Assembly: GCA_036172245.1 (NCBI GenBank)
Contig: JAYWIR010000026.1
Span: 2,852,001-2,916,000, forward strand
DNA: 64,000 bases
Source of the DNA: Raillietiella orientalis
Lineage: Eukaryota
Reading direction: 5' to 3'
This document shows positions 4,433 to 37,494 of the stretch, in pieces. Position 1 is the first letter of the stretch. Every line of letters begins with the position of its first letter. Made by a program: the position numbers and the translations under genes. The notes under the pieces were generated by a model that saw only the letters and a list, made by a program, of their open reading frames with translations, made no database searches and was not told the DNA's origin.

Positions 4433-6088
4433 TATGGCTGGGAAAGTGGCGTCGCGGCACCTGCCGCGGGGCAGGTGTACGAAAGGTCCATCGGTACGAG
4501 GACCATCGGAACGAGGACGGAGGCCTCTTTAGGCGCCTGGGGTACCTGTTCGGCCTCCATCCTCACCATCCCCTGCGTGTCCGAGCGTGGAATTCTCTCG
4601 GGCGACGGGTCCCGGGAGTTTCCCACGCTCATGACACCCTCGCTACCGGAAGCCATCTCTTCCCCTTCGTCGGGGGAGACGATCTTCCGGGGCATTGTGG
4701 ACTTTCGTCCTGCCTTTTTGCGGGGTGACGCAGAGATGGATGCTGTGTTTCCGGCCTTCACCTCGTGTCGGAAGTGGCCGACTCCTGAGGGGAAGCCGGA
4801 CGCCTGACGGCCTTCTTGCCAGCCTTGGGGGCAACCGGCTGCAACGAGGCAGCTGGCTCCTCCGCGGCGCGCTCGAAGGCGACGTCATCGAGCGTAGGCT
4901 CGATGACGGACGCCGCCGCCTCGCTCCCCTCCTTGTTGACTTTGTCAACGGAGGGTTGAGCAGGGGCAGCAGCGAGTTCTTTAGCGCCGCATTCGTCGAT
5001 GGCGGGAATCCGCTCTACAACGACGCAGCAGCTTTTTATTTTATCGCGGCGCAGAGCGGTTTCGCTCAGTTTCGCCAAGTCCTTTCCCTTTTTATGGGAG
5101 TTTTTCTTGGGGTCGACCTTCTGCCACCCTGGCTCTTGACCCTCGCCCTCGACCTTTTCGGCGTGTTTCGCCGAGGTCTTGAGGCTGGCCTTCGCCTTGG
5201 TGGCGGAGGTGACCTCCTTAGGAGCAGCACGAGCTGCCAGCTTTTTTCTCTTTTTTGCCGCGCGCTTTCTCGCGTTTTCCGCAGACACGACGCGGACTGT
5301 GTTTTGGGGGCACACCAGACGGGTGTGCCCCGCTTGTTTGCATTGCTGGCACTGCACGCTCGGACACCTCATTTTAAGGTGACCAAAGCTGCTGCAGCAG
5401 CCGCAAAACTTGGGTTTCCCGACGTACCACACGTAAACGGATTCACCGTTGACGGTAAGTTTGTGAGAAACTCACATCCCTCGCAAACCGTCACTCGCGC
5501 TGCACCCAAGCCGCCAAGCACCCCGTCGTAATCGACAAAAGGAGTAGGCTTTCCCCACAGCGCGTGGACAGTTGCAAACTTTTCTAATTCGTTCCGGACG
5601 GCCTCCTTCGTCATCCGGAACGTGATACCGGTCAGGTGAACGATCACCGACCGGTCTTCAGTAATGGGGAGAAGCCTCCGGCTGCCCATAATTACGGGGG
5701 TTCGCAGAAGTCTCTGCGCAAAAGTTGCTTCCTTGCAGATAACTTCCACAAATTGACCCCCGCTTCTGACGGACATAGGCAGAAGCTCCTCTTTTTGTAC
5801 ACCCAGAACGCGCATCGCCTGAGAAAAGGCGCGCGCGTTCTCGGGAGAATATGAACCACCTACCTTATATAGAAGGGGTGGGTTATACCCCTCCTCCAGG
5901 TAAGCGCGCATTTCCGCCATAGCCGCTGGCGTAGGTGCCGCAGCCACGGCGTTCCAAGCCCTGAGTAGGGCCAAGGGCGCATCCATGCTGGCGGGAGCCT
6001 CCACTGATGCGGGAGCCCCCACCTCCATCTCCTCCGGGGGTAATGAGGTCATCGCCCCCGGATCCTCACCGGTGGTGGTATCAGGCAT
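4432..6088 (-). pseudogene. Element B ORF1 (gag-like, two CCHC knuckles), frameshifted
   Basis: MPDTTTGEDP start; knuckles CGCCSSFGHLKMRC and CQQCKQAGHTRLVC; split into three ORFs; stop TAA overlaps the ORF2 ATG (TAATG). Confidence 0.9.
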
Positions 6089-6170
6089 TGCTGCCGAATC
6101 CTCCACCCACACCACGCACAAGCACCAACGGAAATGAAACTCAGGAGCAACGAAAAGACACGTCCGCTCG

Positions 6171-6187
6171 ACGCTCCGCAGTCTCCA
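6171..6187 (+). repeat. 17-bp target/TSD acgctccgcagtctcca (variant 2) between tandem B and C
   Basis: Exact match to 11706-11722. Confidence 0.9.
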
Positions 6188-6400
6188 TTGAAACCCGGGT
6201 GCGCCGGGACGTTTATTCTAACGAATAAACTTATACAATCTGTGACTGGACCAGTAGTCCAGCCACGCCCTGGAAAGATATAGCCTGCCGGGCTACCGGT
6301 GCGCAGACCGGCGCGGTCGACCTCGGCAGCAGAGGGGAGGAGGACCGAAACAAAAAGAAAACAAAAAATAAACAAAAATCAGGGAGGGAGCGGGAAGGGA

Positions 6401-9400
6401 TCACAGTCTGCTGGGAGGGTCCGTCATCCTCTGGAGGATGCCGACAAGCTGTTTCTGCTTGTGTGGTTCCAGATGGGGCCATCGCGTCGCCATCCTGAGG
6501 AAACGGGCGGCATACACGTTGGCATCCCTGTCGCTGGATCCTCCCGTCGCTGTGCTCCATGCCACGACGATCCCGCGTAGGCAGCACAGGGCTGCAAGCG
6601 AGGCCGCTGGAGGCAGGGCGTCACGGACGAAGAGGGGGCGCAAAGCGTCTCTGGGGTTGCCTCCGGGGATCCCCAGGGCTGCGGCAAAGCGTTTCCACAA
6701 GGGACGGAGGGCAACACAATCCACTAACAGGTGGGGGAGGTATTCCCTCTCCCCGCACCTGACACAATTAGGGTTGACACCCCCCCGCGTCCAGTGGTGT
6801 CGGCGGGCGTTGCACGGAAGCCCCCAATGCAACACCATCAGTGCCGACTGTTGCCACTTCATGGGGAGGGTGCGCGAGTCCATGAGCACCGGAGGCCACT
6901 CGAGATGTTCCTCTGGAACATCCAGTAGCTCTCCCCAGCGCAAAAGTTCATTTGGGGTGGTCCTCGGAGTCGCAGCGTTGGTGAGCTGACCCGTTCTCCA
7001 ATCCCCGATGTTCTTTGCCCTGCTGGCGATCTTGACAGTAACCTCCCATTGTGCCGCGACGTCGCTGCCCAGATGTTCCCGTAGGGTAGGCAGTACCGCA
7101 GCAAGGGAGGTTCTTTGTGCCCACGCTCTCCTTCGGGGATTCTCGATGATTTCTCGGAGCGTGCGGCGGGCATGCGGCCCGAACAGAGCTATTCGCTCGT
7201 GTTGCGAGCTCTGCTCCTGAATCATCGCCCACGTGCGGACGGTTTCCTGCAACCAGGCAGGACCGTTCGCGGGGCGTACGAGGATCCGCGCCGAGTTGTT
7301 CTTCACGAGCGTGGCCGCCCTCCGAAGTTGAAGTCCGCAGTGGCAGATGGGGCTTCGGAGTGCAAAGTAGGACGAGAGTCCCGCATTGCCGGTGGCCCGC
7401 TCGACGAGGAGACGTGCAGGGAGGCACCAAGGGGTTCACCAATTTCCTGCCATAAACGCAACAACTCGGAACTGGAGCTGTAGCTCCAGCCGCTCCAACG
7501 TCAGGAGGCCCAGACCACCATCCCGACGAGGAGCGCACAAGTCCGAAAGACGGACTCGGGGCCTCCCTCTGCACCAAAGGGCGATCCTCAGGAGGTCCTT
7601 CGTCCTCTTCTTTGAATCCGCTCAGAAGTAGCAAACAAAATGCAAGGGGCGAAGGAGGGGTGCCGTAAGCGCGTTCCACGCCGCGACCCGTTCCTGCAGG
7701 TAGAACCTGCCGTCCTGGAACGGGCCGATCGCCGCCTGAGCCTTCTGAAGGCAGCCGGACCACGCTTCCGCACGGGAGTAGTCCCCCAACGGCACACCAA
7801 GGTACTTGAAGTACCTCACCGTGGGGATCCCCAAACGGACCCAGTCCTGCTGCCCTGCCCACGCCGCTCCGACTGGCATTACGGACGACTTCGCCCTGTT
7901 CACCGTCAGTCCTGTTCCACGACTCAGCAGGTCGAAGAAGTCCTCGACCGCCGAGGCCGGAGTGGACATAGGCAGCAGCAGCAGAAGATCGTCCGCGTAC
8001 GCCGAAACCGCAGGCGTACCGGGGCAATCGCACGGCAGGTGCGCAAGAGTCTCCCTGTACGCTCTCAGCACCAATTCGAAAAGGCGCTAAAGAGCAGGGG
8101 GCTCAGGCTGTCTCCCTGCCGTATGCCGCGTCGCACCGGTACTCCGTGCACGGTTTGCCCGCTGAAAAGAACATTAATGAGCGCGTCGCGCCAGCTGGAG
8201 CGCAGGTAGGCCAACAAAGAGGCCGGGAAGCTCAAGCGTTCCAGAAGCTCAAGCAGGAGATTCTGGTCGACGCTGTCGAATGCTTTACGCAAGTCGACAG
8301 CGACCGCAAGGGCTCCCTTCCCCACCCAACCGTTCCGTCTCCCGCCAACGGACGCACCGGAATTCCGGCTGCTCAATAAGCCCCTTCCTTGTTGTAGCTC
8401 TAACCATGTGGAAGCGTGGAACAGGTTCGCGTCCATGCTCCGCCCGGGAACAGCATAAGTCTGTTCCGGGCTGAAGAAGATGTTGGCGACCCGTCCCAGG
8501 CGCTCTGCCCACATCTTGGCTATCAACTTGGCGTCCGCATTCACTATTGTGATGGGACGCCAGTTGTTCATGCTCCTTAGGTCTCCTCCGTTCGGGAGGA
8601 GCCGCACCTTTGCTGAACGAAACGAGGTGGGAACGTCACCTGTTTCACGGATCAGCAAGGTGAGCTGATGTACCAGGGGAGTAAGCTCAGCCGGGAAAGT
8701 TTGGTAAAACTCCGCGGGCAGGCCGTCCTCCCCTGGAGCCTTCCGCCTCTTGAGCTTTCCGATGGCCGAGAGGATCTCGTCCAGCGTGAAAGGCTCGTCG
8801 ATGCTTCTTTTCTCCTCCTCCCCGATCTCTAGAGCACCTTTTGGAAGCAGAAGTCGTAAGACGTCTCGCTCCAAAGGCGCCCTGGCGTACAGGGAGGAGT
8901 AAAATTTTCCTACTATCCCGCGTTTCTGAGCGGGAACCGAGTGCTCCCGGCCCTGGTCGTCCAGCAAGCTGGCCGATCCGGATTGCCAGGCTTGCCTCTC
9001 GGCTCCCGCTCGGTACTCTGCTAACCTGCGCATGTCGGGGGTTCTCGCGTAACGTCGGGCCTGAAGATAGCACCTTTCGTTACGCGGCCCCTCCCCAAAA
9101 CCTGCAGGTAGGCGATGCAGGGGGAACTGATCGCAGAACTCCTGGACCGACCGCTTGAAGCGGTCCCAGTCCTGAAGTGTCTGCATCCTGAAGCTTCGAA
9201 TAAACGCGCGGAGGTGCTCCGCCGCGTCGGGAAACTTCAGCCAGTCCCCTGGCAGACGCCACGCTGACGAGGGGGGGCCCTTGTCGCGCGGACGCACTTC
9301 GAACATGATCCGACCATGGTCCGACAGCTCGAATGGTACCTTGCCGCGCCTGCCCACCCGAGAGCATAGGTGCTGATCAAGGTACACGTGATCGATGCTG

Positions 9401-9981
9401 CTTTCCATGGCCGTGTCCCCGGCCAACAAGTTGCGCGTGGTCATTTCTGCGCACAACTCGTTGACGCGGTCGTTCAGTGTATCCGGCGCACCTGAAAGCA
9501 GGCGCAGGTTGAAATCACCTGCGATCAGGTGCGCTTTGCGAACTCCTGCATCGGTCAGCCAATCGCGTCTCAGGGCAAGGTAGAATTCCCTTCTTGCCTT
9601 CGCCCTCAACGCGTTATTTCCGCTAGGAGCGTATAGGTTGGTGACGACCAGGTCGATAGAGTCGGACCAGCTGAGAGTCAGCTGACCGACGCGACCTGCG
9701 TCATCGAACCGAACGTCATTTATTGCGGTCTCGATGGCTGGCCGAAGCAGGAAGGCGACACCGCTTGATTTCGCGGTGCCGCAACGCCACAACAGCCGCC
9801 CACCCGAGATCCGTTCGATCTCCCGGGCTTGATCTGCGGAGATCACGTGGATCTCCTGCAGCAGCACCAGGTCGAAGGATGCCAGGGTGGCGGCCACGTC
9901 ACGCCTCTTGCCGTCGTCGCTTAGCCCGTTCACGTTCCAACAGGCGATCAGAAGACGACGGCGAGAGGCGATTCCCGGCAT
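6401..9981 (-). pseudogene. Element C ORF2 (APE-RT-zinc finger), few disablements
   Basis: 638-aa ORF 8065-9981 (ACWNVNG, LQEIH, GDFN, SDH, KAFD, QGDSLSP); frameshifts near 8080 and 7625; stop near 7436. Confidence 0.93.
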
Positions 9982-11623
9982 TATGGCTGGGAAAGTGGCG
10001 TCGCGACACCTGCCGCGGGGCAGGTGTAGGAAAGGTCCATCGGTACGAGGACGGAGGCCTCTTCAGACGCCTAGGGTACCTGTTCGGCCTCCATCCTCAC
10101 CATCTTCTCCGTGTCGGAGCGTGGAATTCACCCGGGCGACGGGTCCCGGGAGTTTCCCACGCTCATGGCACCCTCGCTACCGGAAGGCATCTCTTCCCCT
10201 TCGTCGGGGGAGACGATCTTCCGGGGCATTGTAGACTTCCGTCCTGCCTTTTTGCGGGGTGCCGCGGAGATGGATGCTGTGTTTCCTGCTTTCACCTCGG
10301 CGTCAGAAGTGGCCGACTCCTGAGGGGAAGCCGAACGCCTGACGGCCTTCTTGCCAGCCTTGGGGCAACCGGCTGCAGCGAGGCAGCCAGCTCCTCCGCG
10401 GCGCGCTCGAAGGCGACGTCATCGAGCGTGGGCTCCATGACGGACGCCGCCGCCGCGCTCCCCTCCATGTTGACTTTGTCAACGGAGGGTTGAGCAGGGG
10501 CAGCAGCGAGTTCTTTAGCGCCGCATTCGTCGATGGCGGGAATCCGCTCTACAACGACGCAGCAGCTTTTTATTTTATCGCGGCGCAGAGCGGTTTCGCT
10601 CAGTTTCGCCAAGTCCTTTCCCTTTTTATGGGAGTTTTTCTTGGGGTCGACCTTCTGCCACCCTGGCTCTTGACCCTCGCCCTCGACCTTTTCGGCGTGT
10701 TTCGCCGAGGTCTTAAGGCTGGCCTTCGCCTTGGTGGCGGAGGTGACCTCCTTAGGAGCAGCACGAGCTGCCAGCTTTTTTCTCTTTTTTGCCGCGCGCT
10801 TTCTCGCGTTTTTCGCGGACACGACGCGGACGGTGTTTTGGGGGCACACCAGACGGGTGTGCCCCGCTTGTTTGCATTGCTGGCACTGCACGCTCGGACA
10901 CCTCATTTTAAGGTGACCAAAGCTGCTGCAGCAGCCGCAAAACTTGGGTTTCCCGACGTACCACACGTCAACGGATTCACCGTTGACGGTAACTTTGTGG
11001 GGAAACTCACATTCCTCGCAAACCGTCACTCGCGCTGCACCCAAGCCGCCAAGCACCCTGTCGTAATCGACAAAAGGAGTAGGCTTTCCCCACAGCGCGT
11101 GGACAGTTGCAAACTTTTCTAATTCGTTCCGGACGGCCTCCTTCGTCATCCGGAACGTGATACCGGTCAGGTGAACGATCACCGACCGGTCTTCAGTAAT
11201 GGGGAGAAGCCTCAGGCTGCCCATAATTACGGGGGTTCGCAGAAGTCTCTGCGCAAAAGTTGCCTCCTTGCAGATAGCTTCCACAAATTGACCCTTGCTT
11301 CTGACGGACATAGCCAGAAGCTCCTCTTTTTGTACACCGAGAACGCGCATCGCCTGCGAAAAGGCGCGCGCGTTCTCGGGAGAATATGAACCACCTACCT
11401 TATATAGAAGGGGTGGGTTATACCCCTCCTCCAGGTAAGCGCGCATTTCCGCCATAGCCGCTGGCGTAGGTGCCGCAGCCACGGCGTTCCAAGCCCTGGG
11501 TAGGGCCGGGGGCGCATCCGTGCTGGCGGGAGCCTCCAGTGATGCGGGAGCTCCCACCTCCATCTGCTTCAAGGGCAATGAGGTCATCGTTCCCGGATCC
11601 TCACCGGTGGTGGTATCAGGCAT
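9981..11623 (-). pseudogene. Element C ORF1, frameshifted in its 3' part
   Basis: 443-aa ORF 10292-11623 with two CCHC knuckles; TAATG overlap at 9979-9983. Confidence 0.9.
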
Positions 11624-11687
11624 TTCTGCCTAATCCTCCACCCACACCACGCAAGAGCACCAACGGAAATGGAACTCAGGAGCAACG

Positions 11688-11729
11688 AAAAGGCACGTCC
11701 GCTCGACGCTCCGCAGTCTCCAAGACTGG
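11688..11729 (-). promoter_or_regulatory. Putative Inr + DPE core promoter spanning the C/target junction
   Basis: CCAGTCT (A at 11727, in the host sequence) and GGACG at 11700-11696, i.e. +28 to +32. The GACGT motif recurs at the 5' ends of B, E, G, J, L and M. Function is inferred. Confidence 0.5.
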
Positions 11730-14700
11730 GACCTCTTCAAGGCCTCGTTCCGCGAGTTCTGCGAGGAGTTTCCCCTGCTTGCCTGCCCCCCGGATTCTGG
11801 GAGGGGGCTCGGAACCATCGGGCTTATCTACAGGCCCGCCGGTACGAGAGGACTCCGAATGTCCGTCGCCTCGCGGAATATCAAGCCGGGGCCGAACGCC
11901 AAGCCTGGCAATCCGGGTCGGCCAGCTTGCTGGACGACCAGGGCCGGGAGCGATCCGCCCCACCCGCGATCAGGCACCTCGTGCGACGTTATTACTCCTC
12001 CCTCTACGCTAGGGCACCCCCAGAGCGGAACGCCTCAAGGCTCCTGCTCCCGGATGGAGCCCCGGCAATAGGGGAGGAGGAGAAGATCAGCCTCGACGAG
12101 CCTTTTTCTACCGGTGAAATTCTCGCCGGTATTAATAGGCTCTAGAGGCGAAAGGCGCCAGGGGAGGATGGCCTGCCTGCGGAATTCTTCCAATGTTTCG
12201 CAACAGAGCTGGCACCCCTGGTGCTTCAGTTGACCGGGCTGATGCGAGACGAAGGCGACGTTCCCGCCTCGTTTCGGTCAGCCCATGTGAGGCTCCTTCC
12301 GAAGGGAGGAGACCTGAGATCCCTAGGCAACTGGCGTCCGATCACAATTGTGAATACGGACGCCAAGCTCATCGCTGGTTTGTGGGCTTCCCGTTTAGGA
12401 CAGGTGGCAGACTCCATAATTAGCCCTAAGCAGACATACGCTGTTCCCGGGCGAAGTATGGATGCCAACCTGTTCTTCGTGAGCACATGGTTCCATGTGC
12501 AACGCTGCCTGAATGAAACTGGCGGAAAGATTGGCAACCTCACTTTGGGGCCGCCAGACGGGCTGAGAATGGACACATGGGCTGGGAAGGGGCCCTAGCG
12601 ATCGCGGTCGATCTCCATAAGGCGTTCGACTGCTTTGACCAGGAGCTACTGTTGGAGCTCCTGGGTCGCACGGGCTTCCCACCCTCCCTTCTCTCCTTCC
12701 TGCGCTCCTGCTGGCGCAACGCCATAATTAACATCTGTTTCTCCAGCCAACAGGTGTACGGCGTGTCGGTGCGGCGGGGCATACGGCAGGGCGATAGCCT
12801 CAGTCTCCTGCTCTTTAGCACCTACTTTGTGTTGGTGCTGAGAGCGTACAGGGTGACTTTGGCTGCCCTGCCCAGCTCGTGCCCCGGCCCCCCCGCCGTA
12901 GCAGGATACGCCGACGACCTTCTGCTCATGTTGCCCATGTCCGCCCCGGCAGCCGCAGTCGAGGATTTCTTCGACCTGCTAAGTCGTGGGACTGGACTGC
13001 GGGTAAACAAGGCGAAGTCGTCGGTCGTACCGGTGGGTGCGACGTGGGTCGGACGGCCTGACTGGATCCGCTTGGGGATCCCCGCGGCCAGGTACCTGAA
13101 GTACCTGGGTGTCCCGTTGGGGGACTTCTTCCTCGCAGAAGCCTGGTCAGGTCGTCTCCAAAAGGTAGAGTTGGCAATCGGCCCGTACCTGGAAGGCAAG
13201 TTCCTTCTGCCGGAACGGGCCGCGGTGTGGAACGCTTCCGCGGCTCCCATCCTCCGCCCCCTGCTTTTTGTGTGCTTCGTCCCCCGTGACATTAAAAAGA
13301 GGACAAAAGACCTACTCCGCATCGCCCTCTGGGGCAGCGGGAGGCCACGTGTGCCTCTGGATGATTTATGCGCTCCTCGTCGGGACGGCGGTCTCGGCCT
13401 CCTGACGCTGGAGCGCCTGGAAATACAGCTGCGATGGCGCACCCTCGCCATCGCAGCAAAGTCATGGAGCACCCCTTGGTGCGCTCCGGCCCGAATCCTC
13501 GCCAGCCGTGTGTCCAGGACGCAAGGACTCGCGTCGTTCCTTCTGTGCTCCGGCAGGAAGGTGAGAAGATGCGGCCTTCTTCTTGGGCGCATGGAAGCCC
13601 TGGTCAGAGACAACTGCTGGACGGTATGCAGCTTCGCCAACTCCTCCGCCTGGCTGGAGGAATCAGTTGCGACGTGGGCCAAGCTGAACCTCCAGACTTC
13701 CCCGGACTGGAACCGCCTGCGATTCGGCCCCAACGCCCGCTGCACACTGCGGACTACTCTGGAGTGTCCCGTCAGGAGCGCGTGGGCGGAGACCACTTCT
13801 CTAGCTTCGACCCTGCCCTTCCTCCGGAGGGCTTTAACCAGCGGCCGCAAGCCAAAGTGGCAAGTCTCCTGCCGAATCGCAGGCAAGGAGAAGAAGATGA
13901 GCGGTTGGACCATGGGAGAACTGGCGGATGCCACGACCCCGAGTGCCCTCCCTCGTGGACTTCGTCGATAGGGCGAGCTGCTCGGCATCCCGACGGATGA
14001 CCTGAAGTGGCCCCCAATACTGATAGGATCCAGGCTTCTCCCCCTGAAGTGGCAAGAGTCGGCGCTGCTGCTGTTGCACTGGGGTCTACCCTGCAACGCG
14101 CAACGCTTCCACTGGACACGGGGGAGTGTAAGGTCTGAGTGTGCCAGGTGTGGGGAGCGAGAATCGCTCCCCCACCTACTAGTTGACTGTGCTGCCCTCC
14201 GACCCCTGTGGGAACGGTTCGGGACGACCTTCGGGCTCCCAATGGGCAGCGCGCCCAGAGACGTTCTTCGGCACCTCTTCGTGCGGCACGCCCTGCAGCC
14301 CGCCGCAGCCCTCGCAGCCCTCTGCTGCATCCGGGGCATCGTGGCGGCATGGAGCGACATTCGCGACGAAGGAGTGGATGCCAACGTGAGGGATGTCATG
14401 CCGTATGCGGTCTGCTTCATGCGGAGAGCAGCGAGATGGCCACATCTGGGAAACATGAAGATGGACCTAGAGGGCATCCTGCGAAGGATGGACCCTCCTC
14501 TAAGTGGATTGTGATCCCTTCCTCTCCCTCCAAACTCTTTTTTTTGCTTTCCTTATCTTTATTTTTCTTTTTGTTTTGATACCTATCCCCCTCCACTGCC
14601 GAGCAGCGTCACGCCGGGCTACGTCTCGGCGTCCCGGCAGGTCCGGTGTCGTGTGGCCGTTAGTGGGGCCTCGTACCACGTTTATGCAGAGTTTTTTCAA

Positions 14701-14732
14701 TAAACGCCCCGGGCGTACCCGGGTGGCAACCT
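11706..14732 (+). mobile_element. Segment D: 3' half of a family-A element (linker-RT-zinc finger-3' UTR)
   Basis: Resumes ORF2 as TLRSLQDWDLFK straight after C; RT in ORF 12577-13971 (DLHKAFD, YADD); finger in 14074-14514; AATAAA 14699-14704 and terminal hairpin. Confidence 0.94.
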
Positions 14733-17342
14733 AAAATCCCGCAGGTAGGCGATGCAGGGGGAACTGATCGCAGAACTCCTTGACCGACCGCTTGAAGCGG
14801 TCCCAGTCCTAAAGTGTCTGCATCCTCAAGCTCCGAATAAACGCGCGGAGGTGCTCCGCCGCGTCGGGAAACTTCAGCCAGTCCCCTGGCAGACGCCACG
14901 CTGACAAGGGGGGGCCCTTGTCGCGCGGACGCACTTCGAACATGATCCGACCATGGTCCGACAGCTCGGATGGTACCTTGCCGCGCCTGCCCACCCGAGA
15001 GCATAGGTGCTGATCAAGGTACACGTGATCGATGCTGTTTTCCATGTCCGTGTCCCCAACCAACAAGTTGCGCGTGTTCATTTCTGCGCACAACTCGTTG
15101 ACGCGGTCGTTCAGTGTATCCGGCGCACCTGAAAGCAGGCGCAGTTTGAAATCACCTGCGATCAGGTGCGCTTTGCGAACTCGTGCATCGGTCAGCCAAT
15201 CGCGTCTCAGGGCAAGGTAGAATTCCCTTCTTGCCTTCGCCCTCAACGCGTTGTTTCCGCTAGGAGCGTATAGGTTGGTGACGACCACGTCGATAGAGTC
15301 GGACCAGCTGAGAGTCAGCTGACCGACGCGACCTGCGTCATCGAACCGAACGTCCTTTATTGCGGTCTCGATGGCTGGCCGAAGCAGGTAGGCGACACCG
15401 CTTGATTTCGCGGTGCCGCAACGCCACAACAGCCGCCCACCCGAGATCCGTTCGCTCTTCCGGGCTTGATCTGCGGAGATCACGTGGATCTCCTGCAGCA
15501 GCACCAGGTCGAAGGATGCCAGGGTGACGGCCACGTCACGCCTCTTGCCGTCGACGCTTAGCCCCTTCACGTTCCAACAGGCGATCAGAAGACGACGGCG
15601 AGAGGCGATTCCCGGCATTATGGCTGGGAAAGTGGCGTCGCGGCACCTGCCGCGGGGCAGGTGTACGAAAGGTCCATCGGAACGAGGACGGAGGCCTCTT
15701 CAGGAGCATGGGTACCTGTTCGGCCTCCATCCTCACCATGCCCTCCGTGTCCGAGCGTGGAATTCTCTCGGGCGACGGGTCCCGGGAGTTTCCCACGCTC
15801 ATGGCACCCTCGCTACCGCTAGCCATCTCTTCCCCTTCGTCGGGGGAGACGATCTTCCGGGGCATTGTGGACTTTCGTCCTGCCTTTTTGCGGGGTGCCG
15901 CGGAGATGGATGCTGTGTTTCCGGCCTTCACCTCGGGGTCGGAAGTGGCCGACTCCTGAGGGAAAGCCGGACGCCTGACAGCCTTCTTGCCAGCCTTGGG
16001 GGCAACCGGCTGCAGCGAGGCAGCGAGCTCCTCCGCGGCGCGCTCGAAGGCGACGTCATCGAGCGTGGGCTCGATGACGGACGCCGCCGCCTCGCTCACC
16101 TCCTTGTTGACTTTGTCAACGGAGGGTTGAGCAGGGGCAGCAGCGAGTTTTTTAGCGCCGCATTCGTCGATGGCGGGAATCCGCTCTACAACGACGCAGC
16201 AGCTTTTTATTTTATCGCGGCGCGGAGCGGTTTCGCTCAGTTTCGCCAAGTCCTTTCCCTTTTTATGGGAGTTTTTCTTGGGGTCGACCTTCTGCCACCC
16301 TGGCTCTTGACCCTCGCCCTCGACCTTTTCGGCGTGTTTCGCCGAGGTCTTGAGGCTGGCCTTCGCCTTGGTGGCGGAGGTGACCTCCTTAGGAGCAGCA
16401 CGAGCTGCCAGCTTTTTTCTCTTTTTTGCCGCGCGCTTTCTCGCGTTTTTCGCGGACACGACGCGGACTGTGTTTTGGGGGCACACCAGACGGGTGTGCC
16501 CCGCTTGTTTGCATTGCTGGCACTGCACGCTCGGACACCTCATTTTAAGGTGACCAAAGCTGCTGCAGCAGCCGCAAAACTTGGGTTTCCCGACGTACCA
16601 GACGTCAACGGATTCACCGTTGACGGTAAGTTTGTGGGGAAACTCACATTCCTCGCAAACCGTCACTCGCGCTGCACCCAAGCCGCCAAGCACCCCGTCG
16701 TAATCGACAAAAGGAGTAGGCTTTCCCCACAGCGCGTGGACAGTTGCAAACTTTTCTAATTCGTTCCGGACGGCCTCCTTCGTCATCCGGAACGTGATAC
16801 CGGTCAGGTGAACGATCACCGACAAGTCTTCAGTAATGGGGAGAAGCCTCCGGCTGCCCATAATTACGGGGGTTCGCAGAAGTCTCTGCGCAAAAGTTGC
16901 CTCCTTGCAGATAACTTCCACAAATTGACCCTTGCTTCTGACGGACATAGCCAGAAGCTCCTCTTTTTGTACACCGAGAACGCGCATCGCCTGAGAAAAG
17001 GCGCGCGCGTTCTCGGGAGAATATGAACCACCTACCTTATATAGAAGGGGTGGGTTATACCCCTCCTCCAGGTAAGCGCGCATTTCCGGCATAGCCGCTG
17101 GCGTAGATGCCGCAGCCACGGCGTTCCAAGCCCTGAGTAGGGCCAAGGGCGCATCCATGCTGGCGGGAGCCTCCACTGATGCGGGAGCCCCCACCTCCAT
17201 CTCCTCCGGGGGCAATGAGGTCATCGCCCCCGGATCCTCACCGGTGGTGGTATCAGGCATTGCTGCCTAATCCTCCACCCACACCACGCAGAAGCACCAA
17301 CGAAAATGGAACTCACGAGCAACGAGAAGACACGTCGGCTCG
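14733..17342 (-). mobile_element. Segment E: 5' half of a family-B element (ORF1 + APE), cut by D
   Basis: Near-identical to the 5' halves of B and C; ORF1 from 17260 almost intact; ORF2 from 15618 breaks at HRLPAGF. Confidence 0.95.
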
Positions 17343-20300
17343 ACGCTCCGGAATCTCCAGGACTAAGACCTTTTTAAGGAATCGGTCCGGGAGTTCTGCG
17401 AGCAGTTCCCCCTGGATCGCCTGCCCCCCGGATTCGGCGAGGGTGCTCGCAACCATCGGGTTTATTTACAGGCTCGTAGGTACGAGCGAACTTCTAATGT
17501 CCTTCGCCTCGCCGAGTACCGCGCCGGGGCCGAACGCCAAGCCTGGAAATCCGGGTCGGCCAGCTTGCTGGAAGACCCGGGCCGGGAATGTTCGTGTGCG
17601 GCGTCGGTGCGGCATCTCGTGCGGAGTCATTATTCCTCCCTTTACGCCAGGGCGCCCCCGGATCAAGATGCCTCTCAGCTCTTGCTTAAGGATGGTGCTG
17701 CGGCAATAGGGGAGGAGGAGAAGATCAGCCTCGACGAGCCTTTTTCCACCGGAGAAATTCTCGCCGGTATCGAACGGCTCAAGAGACGGAAAGCTGCAGG
17801 GGAAGACGGCTTGCCCGCGGAGTTCTATCAGAGCTTCGCGGAAGAGCTGACACCCCTGCTGCTTCAGCTGACAAGGCTGATCCGAGACGAAGGCGATGTT
17901 GCCGCCTCGTTTCGGTCAGCCAGAGTGAGGCTCCTTCCGAAAGGAAGAGACCTTAGGAATTTGAACAACTGGCGTCCGATCACGATTGTGAATACGGACG
18001 CCAAGTTGGTTGCCGGGCTATGTGCTTCGCGTCTGGGGCATGTGGCAGAATCCATTATTAGCCCGGAGCAGACATATGCTGTTCCCGGGTGAAGTATGGA
18101 TGCCAACCTCTTCTTCGCGAGCACATGGATGCACGCGCAGAGGTGTCAAAAGGAAGGGAAAGAAAAAATCGGCAACCCCACTTTATGGCCGCCAGCTGGG
18201 CAGGGAATGGACTCCCGGGCGGGGAAGGGGGCCTTAGCGCTCGCAGTCGATCTCCATAAGGCGTTCGACTGTGTTGACCAGGGGCTTTTGTTGGAGCTCC
18301 TGGGTCGCATGGGCTTCCCACCCTCCTTGATCAACTACCTGCGCTCCTGCTGGTGCGATGCGATAATTTCCGTCTCTTTTAGCAGTCAGAAGGTGCATGG
18401 CGTGCCGGTGCGGCGGGGCATAAGGCAGGGAGATAGCCTGAGTCCCCTGCTCTTCAGCACCTACTTTGAGTTGGTGCTGAGAGCGTACAGGGTGACTTTG
18501 GCCTCCTTGCCGAGCTCGTGTGCCGGCACGCCCGCCGTGGCAGCCTATGCCGACGACCTTCTGCTCCTGTTACCTATGTCCACCCCGGCGAAGGCGGTCG
18601 GAGACTTCTTCGATCTGCTCAGCCGTGGGACCGCACTGCAGGTCAACAGGGCGAAGTCGTCGGTGGTGCCAGTAGGTGCGGCGTGGGCAGGGCAGCAGGA
18701 CTGGGTCCGTCTCGGGATCCCCACGGCGAGGTGCCTCAAGTACCTTGGTGTGCCGTTGGGTGACTATTCCCCTGAGGAAGCGTGGTCCAGCTGTCTTCAA
18801 AAAGTTGAGACGGCGATCGGCCCGTTCCTGGAAGACAAGTTTCTTCTTCCGGAACGGGCCGCGGTTTGGAACGCCTTCGCGGCTTCCATTCTCCGCTTCT
18901 TGCTTTTTGTTTGCCCCGCATCAGGAGTAGTTAAAAAGAGGACGAAGGACCTCCTCCGCATCGCCCTTTGGGGCAAGGGGAGGCCCCGAGTCCCTCTGAA
19001 GGACTTGTGCGCTCCGCATGGGGATGGTGTCCTTGGCCTCCTGACGCTAGAACGCGTGGAAATTCAGCTGCGGTGTCGAACCCTCGCCATCGCAGCGAAG
19101 ATGTGGAGGACCCCTTTGTGCGTTGCGGCCCGCCACCTCGCCAGGCGTGTGTCCCGGTGCGAAGGACTCGCGTCGTTTCTTCTGTGCCCAGGCCGGAAGA
19201 TTCGATGATGCGGTCTACTGCTCGGCCGTATGGCAACCCTGGCGAAGGAGAACGACTGGATGGTTTGTGGCCTTGCCAACTCCTCCGCTTGGCTGGAATT
19301 GACTGCTGGCACCTGGGCCAAGCACAACCAGAGGTGCGAAGACCGGATGAACTGCCTGCAAGTCGGCTTTTACGCCCGTTGAACTCTCCGTGAAATTCTT
19401 GAATTTCCACCGAGTTGCACGTGGGCGGAAGGGACACCCCTTGCTACGGCGATGCCCTACCTCCTGAGGGCGCTTCAGGATCGCCAGAAGCCGAGGTGGC
19501 AAGTCACCTGCCAGATCGCAGGCAGGGAGAAGATGTTAAGCGGCTGCACCACAGGAGAACTGGCGGACGCCACGACCCCGAGCGTCCAGCCGCGTGGATT
19601 AATGAGATAAGGCGAGCTGCTCGCCATCCCTACGGATGTGCTGAAGTGGCCCCCGGTACTAAAGGAATCCAGGATCCTGCCCCTTAAGTGGCAAGAGTCG
19701 GCGTTGCTACTGCTGCACTGGGGCTTACCCTGCAACGCACGCCGCTTCCACTCGACAAGGGGAGGTGTGGATCCTGAGTGTGTCAGGTGCGGAGAGTGGG
19801 AATCGCTCTCCCACCTTATTGTGGACTGTGCTGCCATCCGACCCCTCTGGGAACGGTGCCGGGCGACCCTCGGGCTCCCTACGGGCAGCACTCCCAGAGA
19901 CGTTCTTCGGCCCCTCTTCGTGAAGGACCCACTGCAGCCAGTTGCAGCCATCGCAGCCTTGTGCTGTGTCCGTGGCATCGTGGCGGCATGGAGCGACGCC
20001 AATAACAAAGGAGTGGGTCCACTCGCAAGGAATGTCATCCCATACGCCCAGCGCTTCATGCGGAGAGCTGCCGGATGGCCCCAACTGGGGAATATACGGA
20101 CGGACCTCGAGGCCTTCCTTCAACGGATGGGCCCTCCTCACAGCGTTAAGTGATCCCTTCCCTGCCCTCCAACTTCTTTTTGTCTGTTTATTTTTTTATT
20201 TTTCTTTTTGTTTTATTCCCATCCCCCTTCGCTGCTGAGGAACGCTACGCTGGGCTGCGTCCCGGCGTCCCGGCAGGTCCAGTGCATATTGCCGTGAGCG

Positions 20301-20367
20301 GGGCCTTGTACCGCGGATGTAGAGTTTTTTAAAAATAAACGCCCCGGGCGTACCCTGGTGTAAACCT
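17343..20367 (+). mobile_element. Segment F: 3' half of a family-A element, disabled ORF2
   Basis: Begins with the 17-bp target (17343-17359); RT in ORF 18096-19208; finger in 19638-20153; AATAAA 20334-20339 and the same terminal hairpin as D. Confidence 0.94.
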
Positions 20368-20380
20368 CCAAGGCCAGTTG

Positions 20381-21650
20381 GAGGACGTGTTTTTCCTTCA
20401 CTCCTGAGAGGGTAGTAGGAAAACGCTTTCTTGTGTGTGGTGTTTTGTGTACATCGTCGGTGTCCAATGGCCACGACGCCAGAGGACACCGCGATGGAGG
20501 TGGGAGTGGGGTAGGCTAGTTCGCCCCCACAGCCTACTGGAGCAGGGGCAGCCGCCCTGGAATCATCCATGGGCACGCCGAGGACATGGAGAGCCATGGT
20601 GGCCGCGCAAAGCGCAGAAGCCATGGCGGAGATGGCCGCATACAAGGCCTCCGGGAACAAGCCATCGCTTGTCTACCAGGTAGGAAACTTGTTCGACGGT
20701 CGGACAGCGCGCGCCTTCAGCAAAGCGTTGAAGGACGCGAATGTTACTGAGAAGAATCTGGACGGCCTCTCCGCCCTCAGCGGCGGGCAGCGGGTCGAGG
20801 TGGTCTGCAAAGATGTCACCTTGGCTCACCGCCTAATCCATTCGCCGCTGAACGTAGACGGCCGCAAGATCCTGCCAGTATCAATGGACCGCTCCGTTGT
20901 GGTCCACATGACTGGCATCACCAGCCGCATGACGTGGTCAGGGGCTGGTGAGGAATTACAAAAGTACGGTGAGGTGCACGCACTGTGGCCGAAACCCTCC
21001 ATTTTCGACGGCTTTGATAGCCTTTTTGGTGGGCAGGCTGCATCGCGGGTCACCGTAAGGGAAAATTGTGGGCTTCCTCACAAACTACAGGTGGCGCAAG
21101 AAAACGTCGACCTGTGGTATTTAGGGAAGCCCCGGTATTGCGGGCATTGTGATACCATGGGACACCTACGTAAAAGGTGTCCCAATATACAATGCCATTT
21201 GTGCGGGGAGCGGGGCCACGTTTGGCGCGTGTGCCCCAAACGCCTTACCCCGGTTCCCCCTGCCGCGAAAAAAGCGCAGGGAAAACGTGCTTCAAAGGTC
21301 TCTAGACCTAAAGTAGAAAAGGGCCAGCACAAGCTGCCAACACCTCAACCTCCGGAGCGTAAGCCGGAGGATAATCCTTCTGAAAAGGTGGAAGGCGAAG
21401 AGGGATGGCAGCTTGTAGAGGCCAGAAAGCCTAAGAAACTCCCACCCGCGGAGAGCAAAGAGCGCAAGACGGCCGGAAAGCCGAAAAAACCCGGTCCGCG
21501 CTCGAAAACTCTGCGCGAGTGCACGGTGGCACTGGAACGAATCGTCGTTCCCAAGATTGCCACCCGGAGCGTCGATATTCCCCTTGCCGTTTCCGCTGCG
21601 CTTGAGGCTCGCGACGGCGAACCCTCTGTTTACACAGAGGGTGAGCGGTG
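20381..21650 (+). mobile_element. Segment G: 5' end and ORF1 (two CCHC), tandem behind F, probably family A
   Basis: GGACGTGTTTTT at 20383; ORF1 from ATG 20467 (early TAG at 20512) homologous to B ORF1; knuckles CGHCDTMGHLRKRC and CHLCGERGHVWRVC. Family assignment inferred from the tandem position. Confidence 0.85.
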
Positions 21651-24600
21651 CCAGGACCAGGTGCCAGGTGCCAGGATGCAGGCACTTAGAGGAGGAGTGG
21701 AGAGACCGTCGTCCCCCATGGAAGCCATGGAGGTAACGTGCGGCAACGGCGAGGTGGCGGCAGGCATGCCGAAGATCGCGCCCGCGGCGGGCTTTGCTGC
21801 GCCGGCGGCGCCGATGCCAAGGGTCGTGCCCGCGAGGACGACGGCGGAGGTCGTGCCCGCGAAGGCGACGCCGAGGATCGTGCCTGCGGCGGGGAAGGTG
21901 GCGCCTGCGGCGGTAATGCCGATGGTGCCGCAAGCGGCGGTAACGGCGGCAACGTCGAGGTTTGCGCCCGCGGCGGTGGCGTCCCAGGCGGGACCCGCGG
22001 GCGTCCACGCGGTGCAGGGAGCGACGCCATCTTGTTCGGCTGCGGCATCGCAGCCCTTTTCTTATGCGTCGGTGGCGGCTGGACAGGCGAGTGTCCACCC
22101 ACCAATGAAATTCGGTAAGCCGCTTGGCGGAAAAGTTCTAAAAGTGGACCGACCAATAGTGGAAATAGGCCCCAACGTGAAGCCCATTATCTTCAAGACG
22201 GGGCTAATAAAATTTAAAAACATCAGGGAGGTCTATTTGTCCCTCGACAAGACGGACATAGACTTTGATCGCATTCAGGCGATCATTCCATCGAACAACG
22301 GGTTCACAGTCTTTACAGACTGTGAAAACATTAGAGAGCGATTGATCCAGAAGGGGATCAATATACAAGGACGGATGGTTTGTGGTATTGGCGAGATGCC
22401 ATACACAACCGTCTCTTTAAACGGCATCTCCATCCTCACACCGCAACTAGCGGTGTGGAATTACTTGGAGCAGTTTGGGGAAGTTCTGGACCTTGATTTC
22501 CAGAACTTCTCTGGAAACATATTTTCTGGCGACATGATGGCCTAGATGAAGTTGAAGGAGGGAGCGGTGATCCTGGATCGGCCGTTATTGACGAACAATC
22601 CCAGGGAGTGAATGTGCGTTACCGGCAACAACCGGTATTTTGCACCGGGTGCAAGCAGTTCGGCCACAGGGCCGGCGCTTGCCCAACTTGCCGCTGCTTT
22701 CGCTGCGGCAAAGTAGGACATCAAGTCCGAAACTGCCCGCAGCCGGAGGTGTGCTCCTTCTGCAAGAAACACGGACATGCCAAATGGAGCTGTCCGGAGT
22801 TTGCAAACTGCAGAAGCATTCGAGGTCTCTCTCCCGTAAGAAAGAGAAACCCCAAGGAGGCGTAACAGCCTTAGACGGCAGGAAGGCCGAAGGAGGTGAA
22901 AGAAGCCGTCGCGGTATGAAAGACGGCTTCATACAGGTAGGGAAGAAAGGAAAGGGGAGGATGCTCGACAAGGATCGATAAACCACTCTTATCCTGGAAG
23001 GTGAGAATTCAGAAGGCGAGAAGATGGAGGTAGCGCAGGAACGCGCGGAAGAAGAAATAGCCGAAGCCACTCCGGTGTCTTAGGAGGCCCTGCAATCTAC
23101 GGAGGAGCTGGCATCACTGGCTAATAAAGTCCTAGAGGTGATGAGCGGTCCCCACCAAGAAAGAATTTTGCAAAAGAGCTGCAATGCACAGGAGAAGGTC
23201 AACCAGGTTGTGGAGGTCTTCGAGCGCGAGTAGCTAGAGGAACAGCTTCTCGACGTAAAGGCGAACTTCTGCACCAATGTCGAGATAGAAACGCTATCTC
23301 GAAAATTGATCGCGCGGGCCGAAAACTCGACTGAGGAGGCGGAAGTAACCGACCTCTCCGGAACAGAGAGTGACGCCGGCAGCGAGAAGCCCGCTGCTTC
23401 TTTATTGTCTGGAAGAGCACGCTCTCTCAGACAGAAGAAGCTCAGGAAGGGCAAGAAATCGGTCTTACCCTTTTATGGCCTCTTCCCTATCGACCGCCAG
23501 AGGGCTGAACATCGCCTCCTGGAATGTAAACGGTGTGGTGGACCAGGGAAAAAGAAAAAGGATTGTGCGGACCATCGCACAACAAGACATAGTCTGCCTG
23601 CAGGAGACCAACAAGGTGGGTCTCAAGATTAGTCAGCAAATGGAACGGCGATTCAAAGGGCAGATCTTCGTCAGCGAGGAAGAGCGGAACACGCAGTTTG
23701 TGGCGGTCCTAATCAATAACAAATTGGCTCCCACTATTCTCAAAGTGTTCTGTCCCCTACCGGGACGAATCATCGGCGTGCGACTGGCCTGGTCCGCCAC
23801 TGTTCACCCTATCCTGGTGAACCTGCACTGGCCGTACAGGCTAAAACATCGTTGAACGGAGGCGCTGCATGAAGCACTTCGTGAAAAGGTTGCTTCCAAG
23901 GACGTCGTGATTGTTGCTGGCAATCTCAACATATTGGATGAGATCACTCACTCCGAAGACGCCAGAAGAAGGACGGCGTATCGGCGGTTATCCGAAGAGT
24001 TCAGACTGGTGTGTCGAACTGCAAGTCACAAGCCGATCGATCACCTCCTGCACAGCACCAAACTCGGGAATCGCATCGATGGTTTTCCAGACATTATGAC
24101 CACGGTGTTCGATCACCACCTGGTGCGGTTTTTTCTGAAAACGGAGAATCCTCGGCGTTGGCAAGGCACCAAGGCGGCGCTCATCAGCATGCCCGCCTGG
24201 TTCGAAACCCATCCCGTACATCAGGCTGTCCTGCAGACGATTCTGAAGACAACAACAATTCGAGGAGTCGCCATATGATACAGCCTAAAACACAGGATAC
24301 ACTTGTTTGCAAACATGCAGTTCGGGGAGAGGCGCTTGAGGCAGGAGGAGTACCGGGAGCTGAACATGCAAGATCGCTCACTCTGAAAGTACTTCGATCA
24401 GTACGAGAGTCGGTACGTCTTCAAGAACATAAAAGGGGAAGTCGGCGTGCTGGAGAAGAGAAATCTAGCAACAGATATCTTCTGCATCCAGTACGACGGC
24501 CAAAAGCGACAGTCGTCTGAGGACATCGTGGATGCCTTTCACAGGCATTACACGAAACACTTCAGGCGACAACATCTGTGTCGCTCTAGTCAACAGGCCT

Positions 24601-27130
24601 TCTTGAGCTATCTCGAGAAGAGGACCGACGACCTCCAGCGGAACAGACTGGAGGAGGAGTTCTCCGAAGAAAAGGTGAAGACTGCGTTTGGGCAACTTCG
24701 CAAGGACGTGGCAGCGGGCCCTGACAGTGTACCCATCACTCACTATCAGCGGTACCTGCACGCCTACCTGCGCTTGTTCCACCAGTTGACCCTGTGCATC
24801 CGGAAAGAAGGCAGACTACCTCAGTCCTTCTACGAGAGTCGGATGAGATTGCTGCCGAAAGGAGGCGACTCTACTCAGATCGCCGAATGGAGGCCAATCT
24901 CGATCCTAAACTCCGATGCCAAGTGGTTGGCCAAGATCTGGTCCAATCGCTTAGGCAAGGTCATGTCGAGGCTGATCTCTCCGGTCCAGACATTTGCAGT
25001 CCCAGGACGACACATGTCGGACAATGTCAAGTGTGCCCAGGCCACTGTTGGACTCAGTCGATACGTCAGCGAGAACCTGGTGCTGGTGTTCACTGACATG
25101 GAGAAGGCCTTCGACTCCATCGACCATGGGATGCTGCTGAAGGTTCTGGAGAAGCTAGGGCTTCCGGAACACTTCAGCAACTTCGTGAGGGCGGTACTCC
25201 AGAACCAGTACTGCCGGATCAAGATCAACGGCCAGGAGACGGCAGCAATCAGGATGGAACGAGGAGTCAGACAGGGCGACTCGCTAAGTCCGATGCTGTT
25301 CGTCATCTATATGGAGGCGTTGTCGTCCTTTATCGAGAAGAGCGGACGACTAAGCGGGATTACCATCGATAGCCAGCGTCTTACCCATCTGGCATACGCC
25401 GATGATCTACTCTTCTTCATCAAGGGAAAGAAAAATCAGCGTGCGTTTCTGGATGTGGTGGACCAGATGGAACAGGGCTTGGGCTTAAAAATCAATTCCC
25501 AGAAGAGCCAGCTTTTGCCCGTCGGAATCCTGGATCTCTCCACTCTAACGGGTAGTGGATTCCGTACGGTGGACACGGCCAAGTACCTGGGAGTCTACAT
25601 CGGCGACGGCTCTGCGTCGAAGCTGCTGTGGAAAGAAATCCTGGGGAAAACGGCCAAGGAAGCAGCCAAGTACACCCGAACGGACCTTGGGATGAAGCGA
25701 AAGGCCAACATATGGAACGGAGTACTCCTTCCGAAAGTGCTCTTCGGGGCGGCCTTCGCGAGGATGAACAAGGACACTACTGGGGAGTTCGACAAGCTGC
25801 AAAGAAAAACACTCTGGGGCCACTATCGTCCAAGAGTAAGACTGAAACCCCTGTGTCGTCCCAGGGAAGAAGGCGGTTCCGGGATGAAGTCGCTTGCACA
25901 TTCCATGGAAATCATGGATACGCGACACATCCTGGACATGGCCACTTACTGGGATGACTGGCCGTATGCGGCGCACAGGGCCTACGCGTTGTTGCTTAAC
26001 AACTCGAAAGGCCTGATGACTGCGCTGCTAGGCCGAGCAGGCAAATGGAACAAAATCGACCCCTTCTGGACGAGGAAGCAACGGCTGGTGCGGAAGCACC
26101 AAATCAAGATCGTGCCGCGAAGCAGGGAACTCTGGCAGGACGAGTCCATCCTGGTGATCCCTTGGTTGCTTCCTGTCCCGCCGGACACGAGAAGCTGGAT
26201 CTACCAGCGGTCCAGAATTACCCTACTGCAAATCCAGGAGTGGAGGCGAGGAGGCTACCTACATCAAACACGTATACTTCGGTATACAGAGATGATGTTA
26301 GGAAGGTTTACCCACAGGACCCGCGAAGTGTGGTTCAACCACAACGACTTCGCATGGTCGAGGGTAACCAGAACAAACCTCCAAAGGCTTATCCAACAAA
26401 ACGACCGTGACACCAGTGCCCTCCAGGAAGCCACCGAACGCTACGGGAGTGAACAGTTCAATTTGTTAGCGATCGGCACGACGCTCTGGAGGAGTGACCT
26501 TCCGCCGGGCACCCAGGATGACCTCCTGATGTGTTATCACGGAGGAATCCAGAGTGGGTCCCGATTGCAGCACTTTACAGGAAGACGGGAAGACCGAGAC
26601 TGCGCAGCATGTGGAGACGACGACACGAGACTTTACGTCTTGACGTGTCCCACACTCCTGCATGACTGGCTGATCCTGAAAAGGATCATAGGACTAACCA
26701 ACAAGTCCGTTATGGAGATCCTCGCCGGGATGTTTCATTGGGATGGTAATGTTCCCTGTTACAATCCCATGGTGAGGACGACCACAGCCCTCTTCATCAC
26801 CGCCATACTTGTGCGGTAGTGGAAAATGAGGAAAGCCAGAAGAGCCGCACCACCGATGGAGATCCTACTAGGGCTCTTGAAGAGGGAAATCGGCATCAGG
26901 AACTGCGGGAAGATCTACGCCTGGACGTACCGATTCATCCTGAAGAGGATCCAGGACGACGCCCGGGACCATCCAGCTGGAATTCCTTCCTGAAAAGCAG
27001 AACTCTAGTGCAACCCAAGGACCCCCAAGTGCAAAATAATTGTATTGAGTGAATGAGAGTGCGAATGTAAATTTTGTATTTTTATAGAAAAATAAAATTA
27101 CCCCACCCCTTGTGGGACTTGGGGAAACCT
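21650..27130 (+). mobile_element. Element H: family-H retrotransposon lacking most of its 5' UTR, disabled
   Basis: ORF1 from 21676 with three CCHC knuckles; ORF2 23475-26993 with stops (790-aa RT fragment); AATAAA 27091-27096; highly similar to I. Confidence 0.94.
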
Positions 27131-27310
27131 GCCGAGTCGGTGAACTTGCTCCGCGGCTCGAAGTATTGTGCGCTTGACAACTTAATCAGTTCATTGTGCT
27201 CGTGTGTGCCCGGAAAGGGGAAGTTTTCCAGAAGAAACAAAAAAAGAAGCGGCGAGGAGATCGCGGCAAAAGACCTGCAGTGGTCCCGTGCAGCAAGACC
27301 AGCTGCCAGG

Positions 27311-29127: not shown

Positions 29128-29140
29128 GTCTTCCCCTTTT

Positions 29141-37478: not shown

Positions 37479-37494
37479 TCTACTGCCTTGCGTG

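Follow-up and report, generated by a model that had tools for sequence, protein, structure and literature searches.

A probable antisense stack of LINE insertions into the endonuclease-reverse transcriptase linkers of sister LINEs in Raillietiella orientalis

Why do retrotransposons of different families and opposite orientation meet repeatedly within one short coding segment? This question is raised by a stretch of 64,000 nucleotides (nt) of Raillietiella orientalis (assembly GCA_036172245.1, contig JAYWIR010000026.1, positions 2,852,001 to 2,916,000 of the forward strand; hereafter the window, with position 1 as its first letter). Positions 1-51,000 form a cluster of long interspersed elements (LINEs) with 51-61% G+C, nearly all of it consisting of sequence from retrotransposons without long terminal repeats (non-LTR retrotransposons; LTR, long terminal repeat). 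The cluster elements are LINEs of the L1 superfamily with an apurinic/apyrimidinic-type (APE) endonuclease and a reverse transcriptase (RT), and they possess no poly(A). The element map was drawn from a self-comparison of the window and a comparison with three full-length references; all junction counts refer to this one window of 64 kb. The two families of main concern are family A, comprising the copies D and F (78.7% identical to each other, 67-74% to families B and C), and family B, comprising B1, B2 and E (96% identity). Our preferred reading, to which we assign a probability of about 0.55, is that the interval they occupy is an antisense stack of target-primed insertions of sister LINEs into the linkers between endonuclease and RT of resident copies.

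Two sites are central to the argument. Site z is the end of the A/Z-type linker stretch, just 5' of the conserved GACTGGGAC (DWD) codons; site x is the cut between Phe and Gly of HRLPAGF/G in the B-type linker (a slash within a sequence marks a cut or joint). The interval is composed as follows, L denoting a 48-nt piece of linker and ORF an open reading frame:

12-639, plus strand: Z, a 5'-half fragment of an A/Z-type LINE with endonuclease and linker, ending ...TLRNLH at z
640-6139, minus strand: B1, a full-length family-B LINE, its 3' end ...GTTTCAA joined to Z at z
6140-6187, plus strand: L copy separating B1 from B2, an A/Z-type linker piece of 48 nt that ends at z
6188-11674, minus strand: B2, a full-length family-B LINE, its 3' end joined to the L copy at z
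11675-11722, plus strand: L copy between B2 and D, 48 nt, in frame with D (..SGATKRHVRSTLRSLQ/DWDLFK)
11723-14732, plus strand: D, the 3' half of a family-A element, starting with the DWD codons and running to ...GGTGGCAACCT, its 3' terminus
14733: a single base between the D terminus and E; intact B copies carry G here on the B sense strand
14734-17311, minus strand: E, a family-B 5' half with 5' untranslated region (UTR), ORF1 (15536-17266) and endonuclease (14809-15699), cut at x
17312-17359, plus strand: L copy between E and F, 48 nt, in frame with F (..HVGSTLRNLQ/D(stop)DLFK)
17360-20367, plus strand: F, a stop-broken family-A 3' half from the linker to the end ...GGTGTAAACCT
20368-20378: spacer of 11 nt, the first 11 of the 14 nt between F and G
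20379-20410, minus strand: a shortened L-like piece, antisense to G1 and directly before its 5' UTR
20411-27140, plus strand: G1, a full-length LINE of a distant family of lower G+C, with ORF1 (20515-22545) and an ORF2 region (23310-26987)

B2 is 95.7% identical to B1 across 5.5 kb and contains the Pfam domains Exo_endo_phos and RVT_1 within 8065-10062. E differs from B1 at 80 of 2571 and from B2 at 83 of 2577 sites (3.1-3.2%). D contains RVT_1 within 12517-13971 and retains an open frame of 484 codons.

Concerning site z, the joints 639/640 and 6187/6188 and the host resumptions 11722/11723 and 17359/17360, the latter in two diverged hosts, all share this site. The 17-mer ACGCTCCGSARTCTCCA occurs four times (0.64 expected), ending at 639, 6187, 11722 and 17359 and thus always at an element joint; it is followed twice by a B 3' end and twice by the DWD codons of D and F. 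Accordingly, the last 17 nt of Z (623-639) are identical to 17343-17359, and D and F resume at the nucleotide at which Z stops. The two complete B 3' ends (...GTTTCAA; CCCGGGTTTCAA) are situated at z, one joined onto Z and the other onto an L copy. Z itself, with a frame open from 2 to 643, shares 69% nucleotide identity with B1 coordinates 1930-2493 and aligns from 377 to 640 with the B2 linker as far as ...RMQTLQ (tblastn); its linker ends one residue before DWD, with ...EHLREYLRGVTLRNLH aligned to ...EHLRAFIRSFRMQTLQ of B2. From the other side, the tblastn alignments of D and F reach back in frame into L (..HVRSTLRSLQ/DWDLFK and ..LRNLQ/D(stop)DLFK), and in a multiple alignment L comes to lie under the Z linker stretch with an in-frame gap of 12 nt. 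The 48 nt at 6140-6187, 11675-11722 and 17312-17359 are thus sense-strand linker of A/Z type, and the sequence-only reading from which the present analysis started had mis-delimited the B 5' end, which lies 48 nt upstream of z.

All eight linkers outside family A (B1, B2, E, the 34.8-kb copy, C2, I, G1 and G2) are uninterrupted at z, whereas both A copies, D and F, are interrupted there. B would therefore discriminate the A/Z-type sequence 5' of the nick, the very part kept by L. Within the window it is well supported that B targets A at z. What had been claimed of B attacking A thus holds for the target, a specific site hit in two diverged A copies, but not for the junction limits as they had been drawn.

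The following course of events is proposed. The B endonuclease would nick the sense strand of the host at ...TCTCCA/RGACTGGGAC (z) and reverse transcription would be primed there, such that B 3' termini are predicted to continue into TGGAGA(Y)..., i.e., TGGAGAYTSCGGAGCGT. Closure of the 5' end would take place 48 nt upstream, through a second, staggered nick or through the annealing of a leader cDNA. With the sequence 5' of the nick kept by L, each full-length insertion would recreate the target for the next element, and arrays would grow at their host-proximal end, next to the 3' half of the host; B2 would then be younger than B1. In the array B1-L-B2-L-D, head-to-tail copies alternate with copies of the target. 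A four-level alternating nest, A2{F} > B{E} > A1{Z..D} > B1 + B2, is geometrically consistent with the order Z(+), B1(-), B2(-), D(+), E(-), F(+); its left half lies outside the window. The unlimited alternating nesting that had been proposed is an extrapolation.

Concerning the nature of L, whose likeness to the sense linker of Z is significant (reached by 1 of 2000 shuffles), we infer either a 48-nt duplication of the target site or a target-derived leader on the B RNA that anneals to the target. In favour of a duplication, L is found on both sides of B2 with a single mismatch in 48 (6140-6187 versus 11675-11722). The L of E differs from the L copies of B1 and B2 at 5 and 6 of 48 sites, which exceeds the roughly 3% of the B bodies (P 0.017 and 0.004) and fits the level of the host (P 0.06 for at most 5 of 48 at 20% divergence). 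L is also open and in frame with D and F. In favour of a leader, the counterpart of L in Z, left of B1, measures 60 nt and has a likeness of only some 70%. L-like pieces are also present at the 5' ends of C2 and G1 (significant, with 0 of 2000 shuffles as good for each), and they have no counterpart at the 3' ends of these elements. The identity of G to B amounts to only 24-30% in ORF2 (tblastn), compared to a likeness of 81-89% between the L-like piece of G and L and Z; this piece would therefore have been acquired recently from an A/Z-type linker, which holds for duplication and leader alike.

The cluster contains further arrays built of C1, an L-like piece and C2, and of F, 11 nt, an L-like piece and G1, the remaining features being:

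27299-32797, plus strand: G2, 5'-truncated
about 32798-34134, minus strand: H, ORF1
34135-35183, plus strand: B-like fragment with endonuclease and linker
35184-37481, plus strand: C1, from RT to the 3' end
37482-37530, minus strand: L-like piece preceding C2
up to 43060, plus strand: C2, full length
from about 43061, minus strand: I, partial

Smaller RT fragments follow after I, up to about 51 kb. In a wider reading, several sister families (B, C and the distant G) might all home in an R1-like, antisense manner to the 48-nt stretch of the A/Z linker and split endonuclease from RT, each arrival bringing or recreating a target copy at its own 5' end, while the attacked family lands in the linker zone of its attackers. 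We put this forward tentatively, as a proposal that is considerably more likely to be wrong than right.

The reverse direction, A into B, is represented by the junction of D and E. The family-A 3' motif AATAAACGCCCCGGGCGTACCC occurs twice (14699-14720 and 20334-20355; 0 expected), and both copies run to an end in ...AACCT, at 14732 in D and at 20367 in F, such that the family-A terminus can be given as ...CGTACCCKGGTGKMAACCT. E reads leftward from 14734 with 96% identity to B1 and B2; its frame stops at ...FCDQFPLHRLPAGF, whereas the intact B2, B1 and the copy at 34716-34895 go on with G-E/K-G. That the 3' end of D meets minus-strand E at HRLPAGF/G, as read originally, is borne out, with one extra base (14733) in between. 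The alignments equally bear out that both kinds of junction are situated in the linker between endonuclease and RT, 25 codons apart, with oppositely oriented families interleaved: 75 nt separate the x cut (B1 coordinate 2637) from the start of the alignment of D and F with B (2561-2563). Because the D terminus is intact and identical to that of F, the junction can be regarded as an ordinary event in which an A element entered a resident B by target-primed insertion. The primer strand at x ends in a T run (GGATTT), and a preference for such primers is a generic habit of L1-like nucleases. A preference of A for the B linker zone is possible; a fixed site x for A in B is not demonstrated.

A stricter model, to which the sequence-only reading amounts, holds that A possesses a fixed site x (PxG(F/L)/G) in B, that B possesses site z in A, and that the spacer between F and G is the remnant of a second x junction. 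It gains from the position of the D/E junction exactly between the Phe and Gly codons and within 75 nt of the other hot spot, a coincidence that we estimate at about 3% for a random hit in 5.5 kb. The spacer (20368-20381, CCAAGGCCAGTTGG) can be read in antisense as P-T-G-L-(G) and agrees with B2 at x in 9 of its 14 positions; no other match of at least 9 occurs in 330 nt of the B2 linker region. With a background of such matches of 0.0022 per position for the whole window and 0.0025 for 1-51000, the chance of this match is about 0.01 if a register of plus or minus 2 nt is allowed, i.e., it is nominally unlikely. However, the model has one unambiguous event to build on, D/E, and three further B-type x sites of the window that are intact (B1, B2 and 34880) are unoccupied, as are those of C2 and I. 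Of the claim that A targets B at x, the one clear event therefore stands and the fixed site does not. Concerning the spacer, its likeness to B ends with the 14th base and nothing B-like follows after G1, whereas its last 3 nt together with the following 27 resemble linker of Z type: 20379-20381 plus 20382-20408 share 22 of 27 identities with the L of B1, and the same stretch (20379-20408) matches the Z sense linker in 16 of 18 positions, none of 2000 shuffles being as good in either case. Despite its translation and its 9 of 14 matches, the spacer would thus be better read as the flank of a Z-like rather than a B-like linker remnant, and we do not count it as a second x site. We consider the strict model unlikely.

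Several observations weigh against the stack of targeted insertions. The 9/14 match of the spacer at x, nominally unlikely by chance, has no explanation under it. The linker end of Z, left of B1, measures 60 nt and resembles the 48-nt L at only about 70%; L is no simple target duplication if Z and D represent the two halves of one host, and if L is a duplication, one additional recombination is needed to account for Z. The 3' ends of C2, G1 (27140) and G2 lack linker or L sequence: that of C2 (43060) lies inside the RT region of minus-strand I (43061-43320), and that of G2 (32797) inside ORF1 of H. The 3' flanks of G1, G2 and C2 exhibit no significant likeness to L or linker, and the sequence from 32780 on, which includes the last 18 nt of G2, has an 18-nt gapped likeness that is not significant (599 of 2000 shuffles). 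Of the breakpoints between 34 and 51 kb, many are situated outside the linker. Furthermore, B1, B2 and E are close relatives and all counts stem from one window of 64 kb. Finally, the one sequencing run retrieved (X1), in which a fraction of 0.14 of the sampled words was present, yields short contigs: 249 fit 13900-18600, of which 154 are less than 90% alike, and the listed pieces measure 192-411 nt. None of these listed pieces bridges 14732/14733 or otherwise shows a junction; one contig of 238 nt spans 17343-17567 and ends 13 letters beyond, and is undecisive on the junction.

Such observations suit a view of the cluster as a graveyard without targeting, in which insertions into dead LINEs were harmless and the coinciding breakpoints are due to chance or rearrangement. 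The many junctions outside the linker between 34 and 51 kb, the 3' ends of C2, G1 and G2 elsewhere, and rearrangement such as that seen in the B-like/C-like chimera at 35183/35184 all accord with it, and untargeted insertion and rearrangement have indeed also shaped the cluster. Under this view, however, the four 17-mers at four joints, at single-base precision and with 0.64 expected, would have to be accidental. The same applies to the 3' termini, five of eight of which lie at hot spots: B1 (at z), B2 (at the end of L, offset 0), C1 (offset -5), F (offset +11) and D (at x). The linker zones and L pieces make up an estimated 3% or so of the cluster, which results in a binomial P of about 1e-6, the events not all being independent. 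A graveyard as the whole explanation appears quite improbable to us.

Repetition of the B-L-A order could also stem from tandem segmental duplication of a composite of 5.64 kb, with the D/E junction as its joint and the B parts later homogenised by gene conversion. The units 9097-14732 and 14733-20367 (5636 and 5635 nt) indeed align from end to end with 86.9% identity, and the joints of B, L and A are found at identical positions without indels. Their divergence is not uniform, however, but amounts to 93-99% identity within the B sequence and 63-89% within the A sequence, with the switch at the element boundary between B and L; moreover, one end of the duplication would need to coincide with the exact A 3' terminus common to D and F. 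Between D and F, the proportions of synonymous and nonsynonymous differences are 0.39-0.44 (pS) and 0.11-0.16 (pN), giving a nonsynonymous to synonymous ratio (dN/dS) of 0.18-0.30 (237-477 codons), while E and B2 exhibit few changes with dN/dS of 0.7-1.6. This purifying selection, together with the 484-codon frame of D, argues that D and F diverged as active lineages rather than in place and arrived separately, and their difference of 21% with dN/dS of 0.18-0.30, compared to 3% between E and B, speaks for independent insertions rather than a duplicated composite. Given the non-uniform divergence and the purifying selection in the A part, duplication was rejected as very improbable. On these comparisons, two different A hosts appear to have been hit by B at the same nucleotide. 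Hardly credible, and likewise rejected, is twin priming, in which E and F would stem from a single RNA, E as its inverted 5' segment and F as its direct 3' segment, with an overlap of 75 nt: inverted and direct segments with breakpoints 75 nt apart match the geometry of L1 twin priming, but here the segments belong to different families, E being 96% identical to B and F 67-74%, and they differ throughout the 75-nt overlap, such that they are not derived from one RNA.

The organization suggested by the stack of targeted insertions is most similar to that of R1 in Drosophila ribosomal DNA (rDNA). In tandem arrays of R1, the target duplication stands between successive copies, which is explained by insertion into the duplication at the 5' end of a resident copy, and R1 transcripts (of the melanogaster type) carry 6-27 nt of target sequence, the annealing of which gives precise 5' junctions (PMC2718515). 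Shared with R1 are an APE-type LINE, a rigid first-strand nick and head-to-tail arrays with target copies in between; in difference to R1, the elements described here enter the ORF2 linker of a sister LINE, in antisense, instead of the 28S gene, and the target copy measures 48 nt instead of 14 bp (PMC2718515). Two further differences are that the Z copy of the target, left of the array, deviates from the copies inside it, and that the window elements are of L1-like lineage and presumably outside the R1 clade.

A second likeness concerns LINEs of the Tx1 clade, equally L1-like APE LINEs that prefer another mobile element as target: Tx1D is the target of Tx1, Mariner-N4_AMi is that of crocodilian Tx1 families, and LTR retrotransposons are targeted by two families (PMC4494074). 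The targets described there are DNA transposons and LTR elements, whereas here a coding region of a sister LINE is concerned (PMC4494074). In addition, an RT tree unites G1, G2, B2 and D in a clade of their own (support of 99 in the Shimodaira-Hasegawa-like approximate likelihood ratio test, SH-aLRT; quick method, with 14 of the 120 listed matches as references, picked for having (automatic) names), separate from a clade of fish proteins that includes 'TX1 149 kDa', although the placement in this quick tree is weak.

LINEs that insert into one another and build LINE-only clusters are known from Zepp in Chlorella; in difference to Zepp, the junctions described here recur at single-base precision in a coding linker, in antisense and without poly(A). 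Target-specific LINEs are known for rDNA, small nuclear RNA genes, microsatellites, telomeres, DNA transposons and LTR elements. A limited full-text search of the literature yielded no account of LINE families targeting each other's linker or the coding linker of a sister family. We rate the case as R1-like array formation by a target-specific LINE, with a new class of target.

If true, a LINE with a fixed target in the coding linker of a sister LINE would amount to competition between retrotransposon lineages directly at the DNA level. The wider reading would imply a LINE-on-LINE parasitism with self-extending alternating nests by which new insertions are kept out of host genes. It would also provide a simple route to LINE-only clusters beside genes, the present one ending at about 51 kb by an exon of MSH2. 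Second-strand joining is the least understood step of target-primed reverse transcription, and the 48-nt target copy at the 5' end could serve as a natural test of what guides it in L1-like elements. Unless targeting is confirmed genome-wide, the locus would be an ordinary nested repeat cluster.

The assignment of the elements to the L1 superfamily is based on their domains and nearest relatives. Exo_endo_phos (Pfam PF03372) is found in B2 (4.7e-15), E (5.8e-10) and G2 (5.4e-18) and also at 34122-35441; RVT_1 (PF00078) is found in B2, D, F, G1 and G2, the RT being situated downstream of the endonuclease. The closest database relatives of the ORF2 products are L1/Tx1-like ORF2 proteins at only 22-32% identity, such that this collection includes no close copies of the same or a related organism. 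Concerning ORF1 proteins, the Pfam search yielded no family at E <= 0.01, and the translation of G1 ORF1 exhibits two CX2CX4HX4C motifs. At none of the eight recognisable 3' termini is there a poly(A) tail, which is typical of L1 proper. Instead, all eight carry AATAAA, a small GC-rich inverted repeat and a short family-specific tail (AACCT, TTTCAA, AAAATCT/G or GAGTCGG). The 3' ends inspected for AATAAA, inverted repeat and tail are:

14690-14732
20325-20367
640-685, minus strand
37436-37476
27085-27140

Folding energies of the 3' hairpins cannot be told from those of shuffled sequences (z -0.5 to -2.0), and Rfam gave no family for any part of the window at E <= 1 and hence no ribozyme that could be recognised at the 5' ends. 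The A/B 3' motif was found at 0 loci in a metagenome scan.

Some further observations concern the remaining elements. Family G has 52-56% G+C, below the other families; the ORF2 of G2 is uninterrupted (1224 codons, 28976-32650) and contains both domains, such that, judged from this frame, the family may still be active. The 158 nt between G1 and G2 (27141-27298) have no match elsewhere in the window. The 5' flank of H (34060-34134, plus strand) contains GGAAACACGTC, which recalls the first block of L without reaching significance (1413 of 2000 shuffles). At 34135-37481 (plus strand), a B-like part (96% to B, B1 coordinates 1907-2940) is continued directly by a C-like 3' part (85% to C2, B1 coordinates 3259-5534), and 318 nt are missing at 35183/35184; the joint could be due to a deletion or to gene conversion, or the element could be a chimera. 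Two RT fragments, 48841-49328 (minus strand) and 49331-50712 (plus strand), lie head to head at a distance of 2 nt; B1 coordinates 3938-3451 are inverted here and followed by 3607-4973, which is a joint of the inversion type outside the linker.

From about 51 kb on, where the LINE cluster ends, G+C drops to 40-49%. An MSH2-like open frame of 244 codons (51891-52625, minus strand) corresponds to the C-terminal ATPase part and exhibits 48-54% identity to animal MSH2 proteins in a protein search, with many phyla alike. The frame adjoining this MSH2 exon (51679-51960, plus strand) presumably encodes a domain of the SANT/Myb type.

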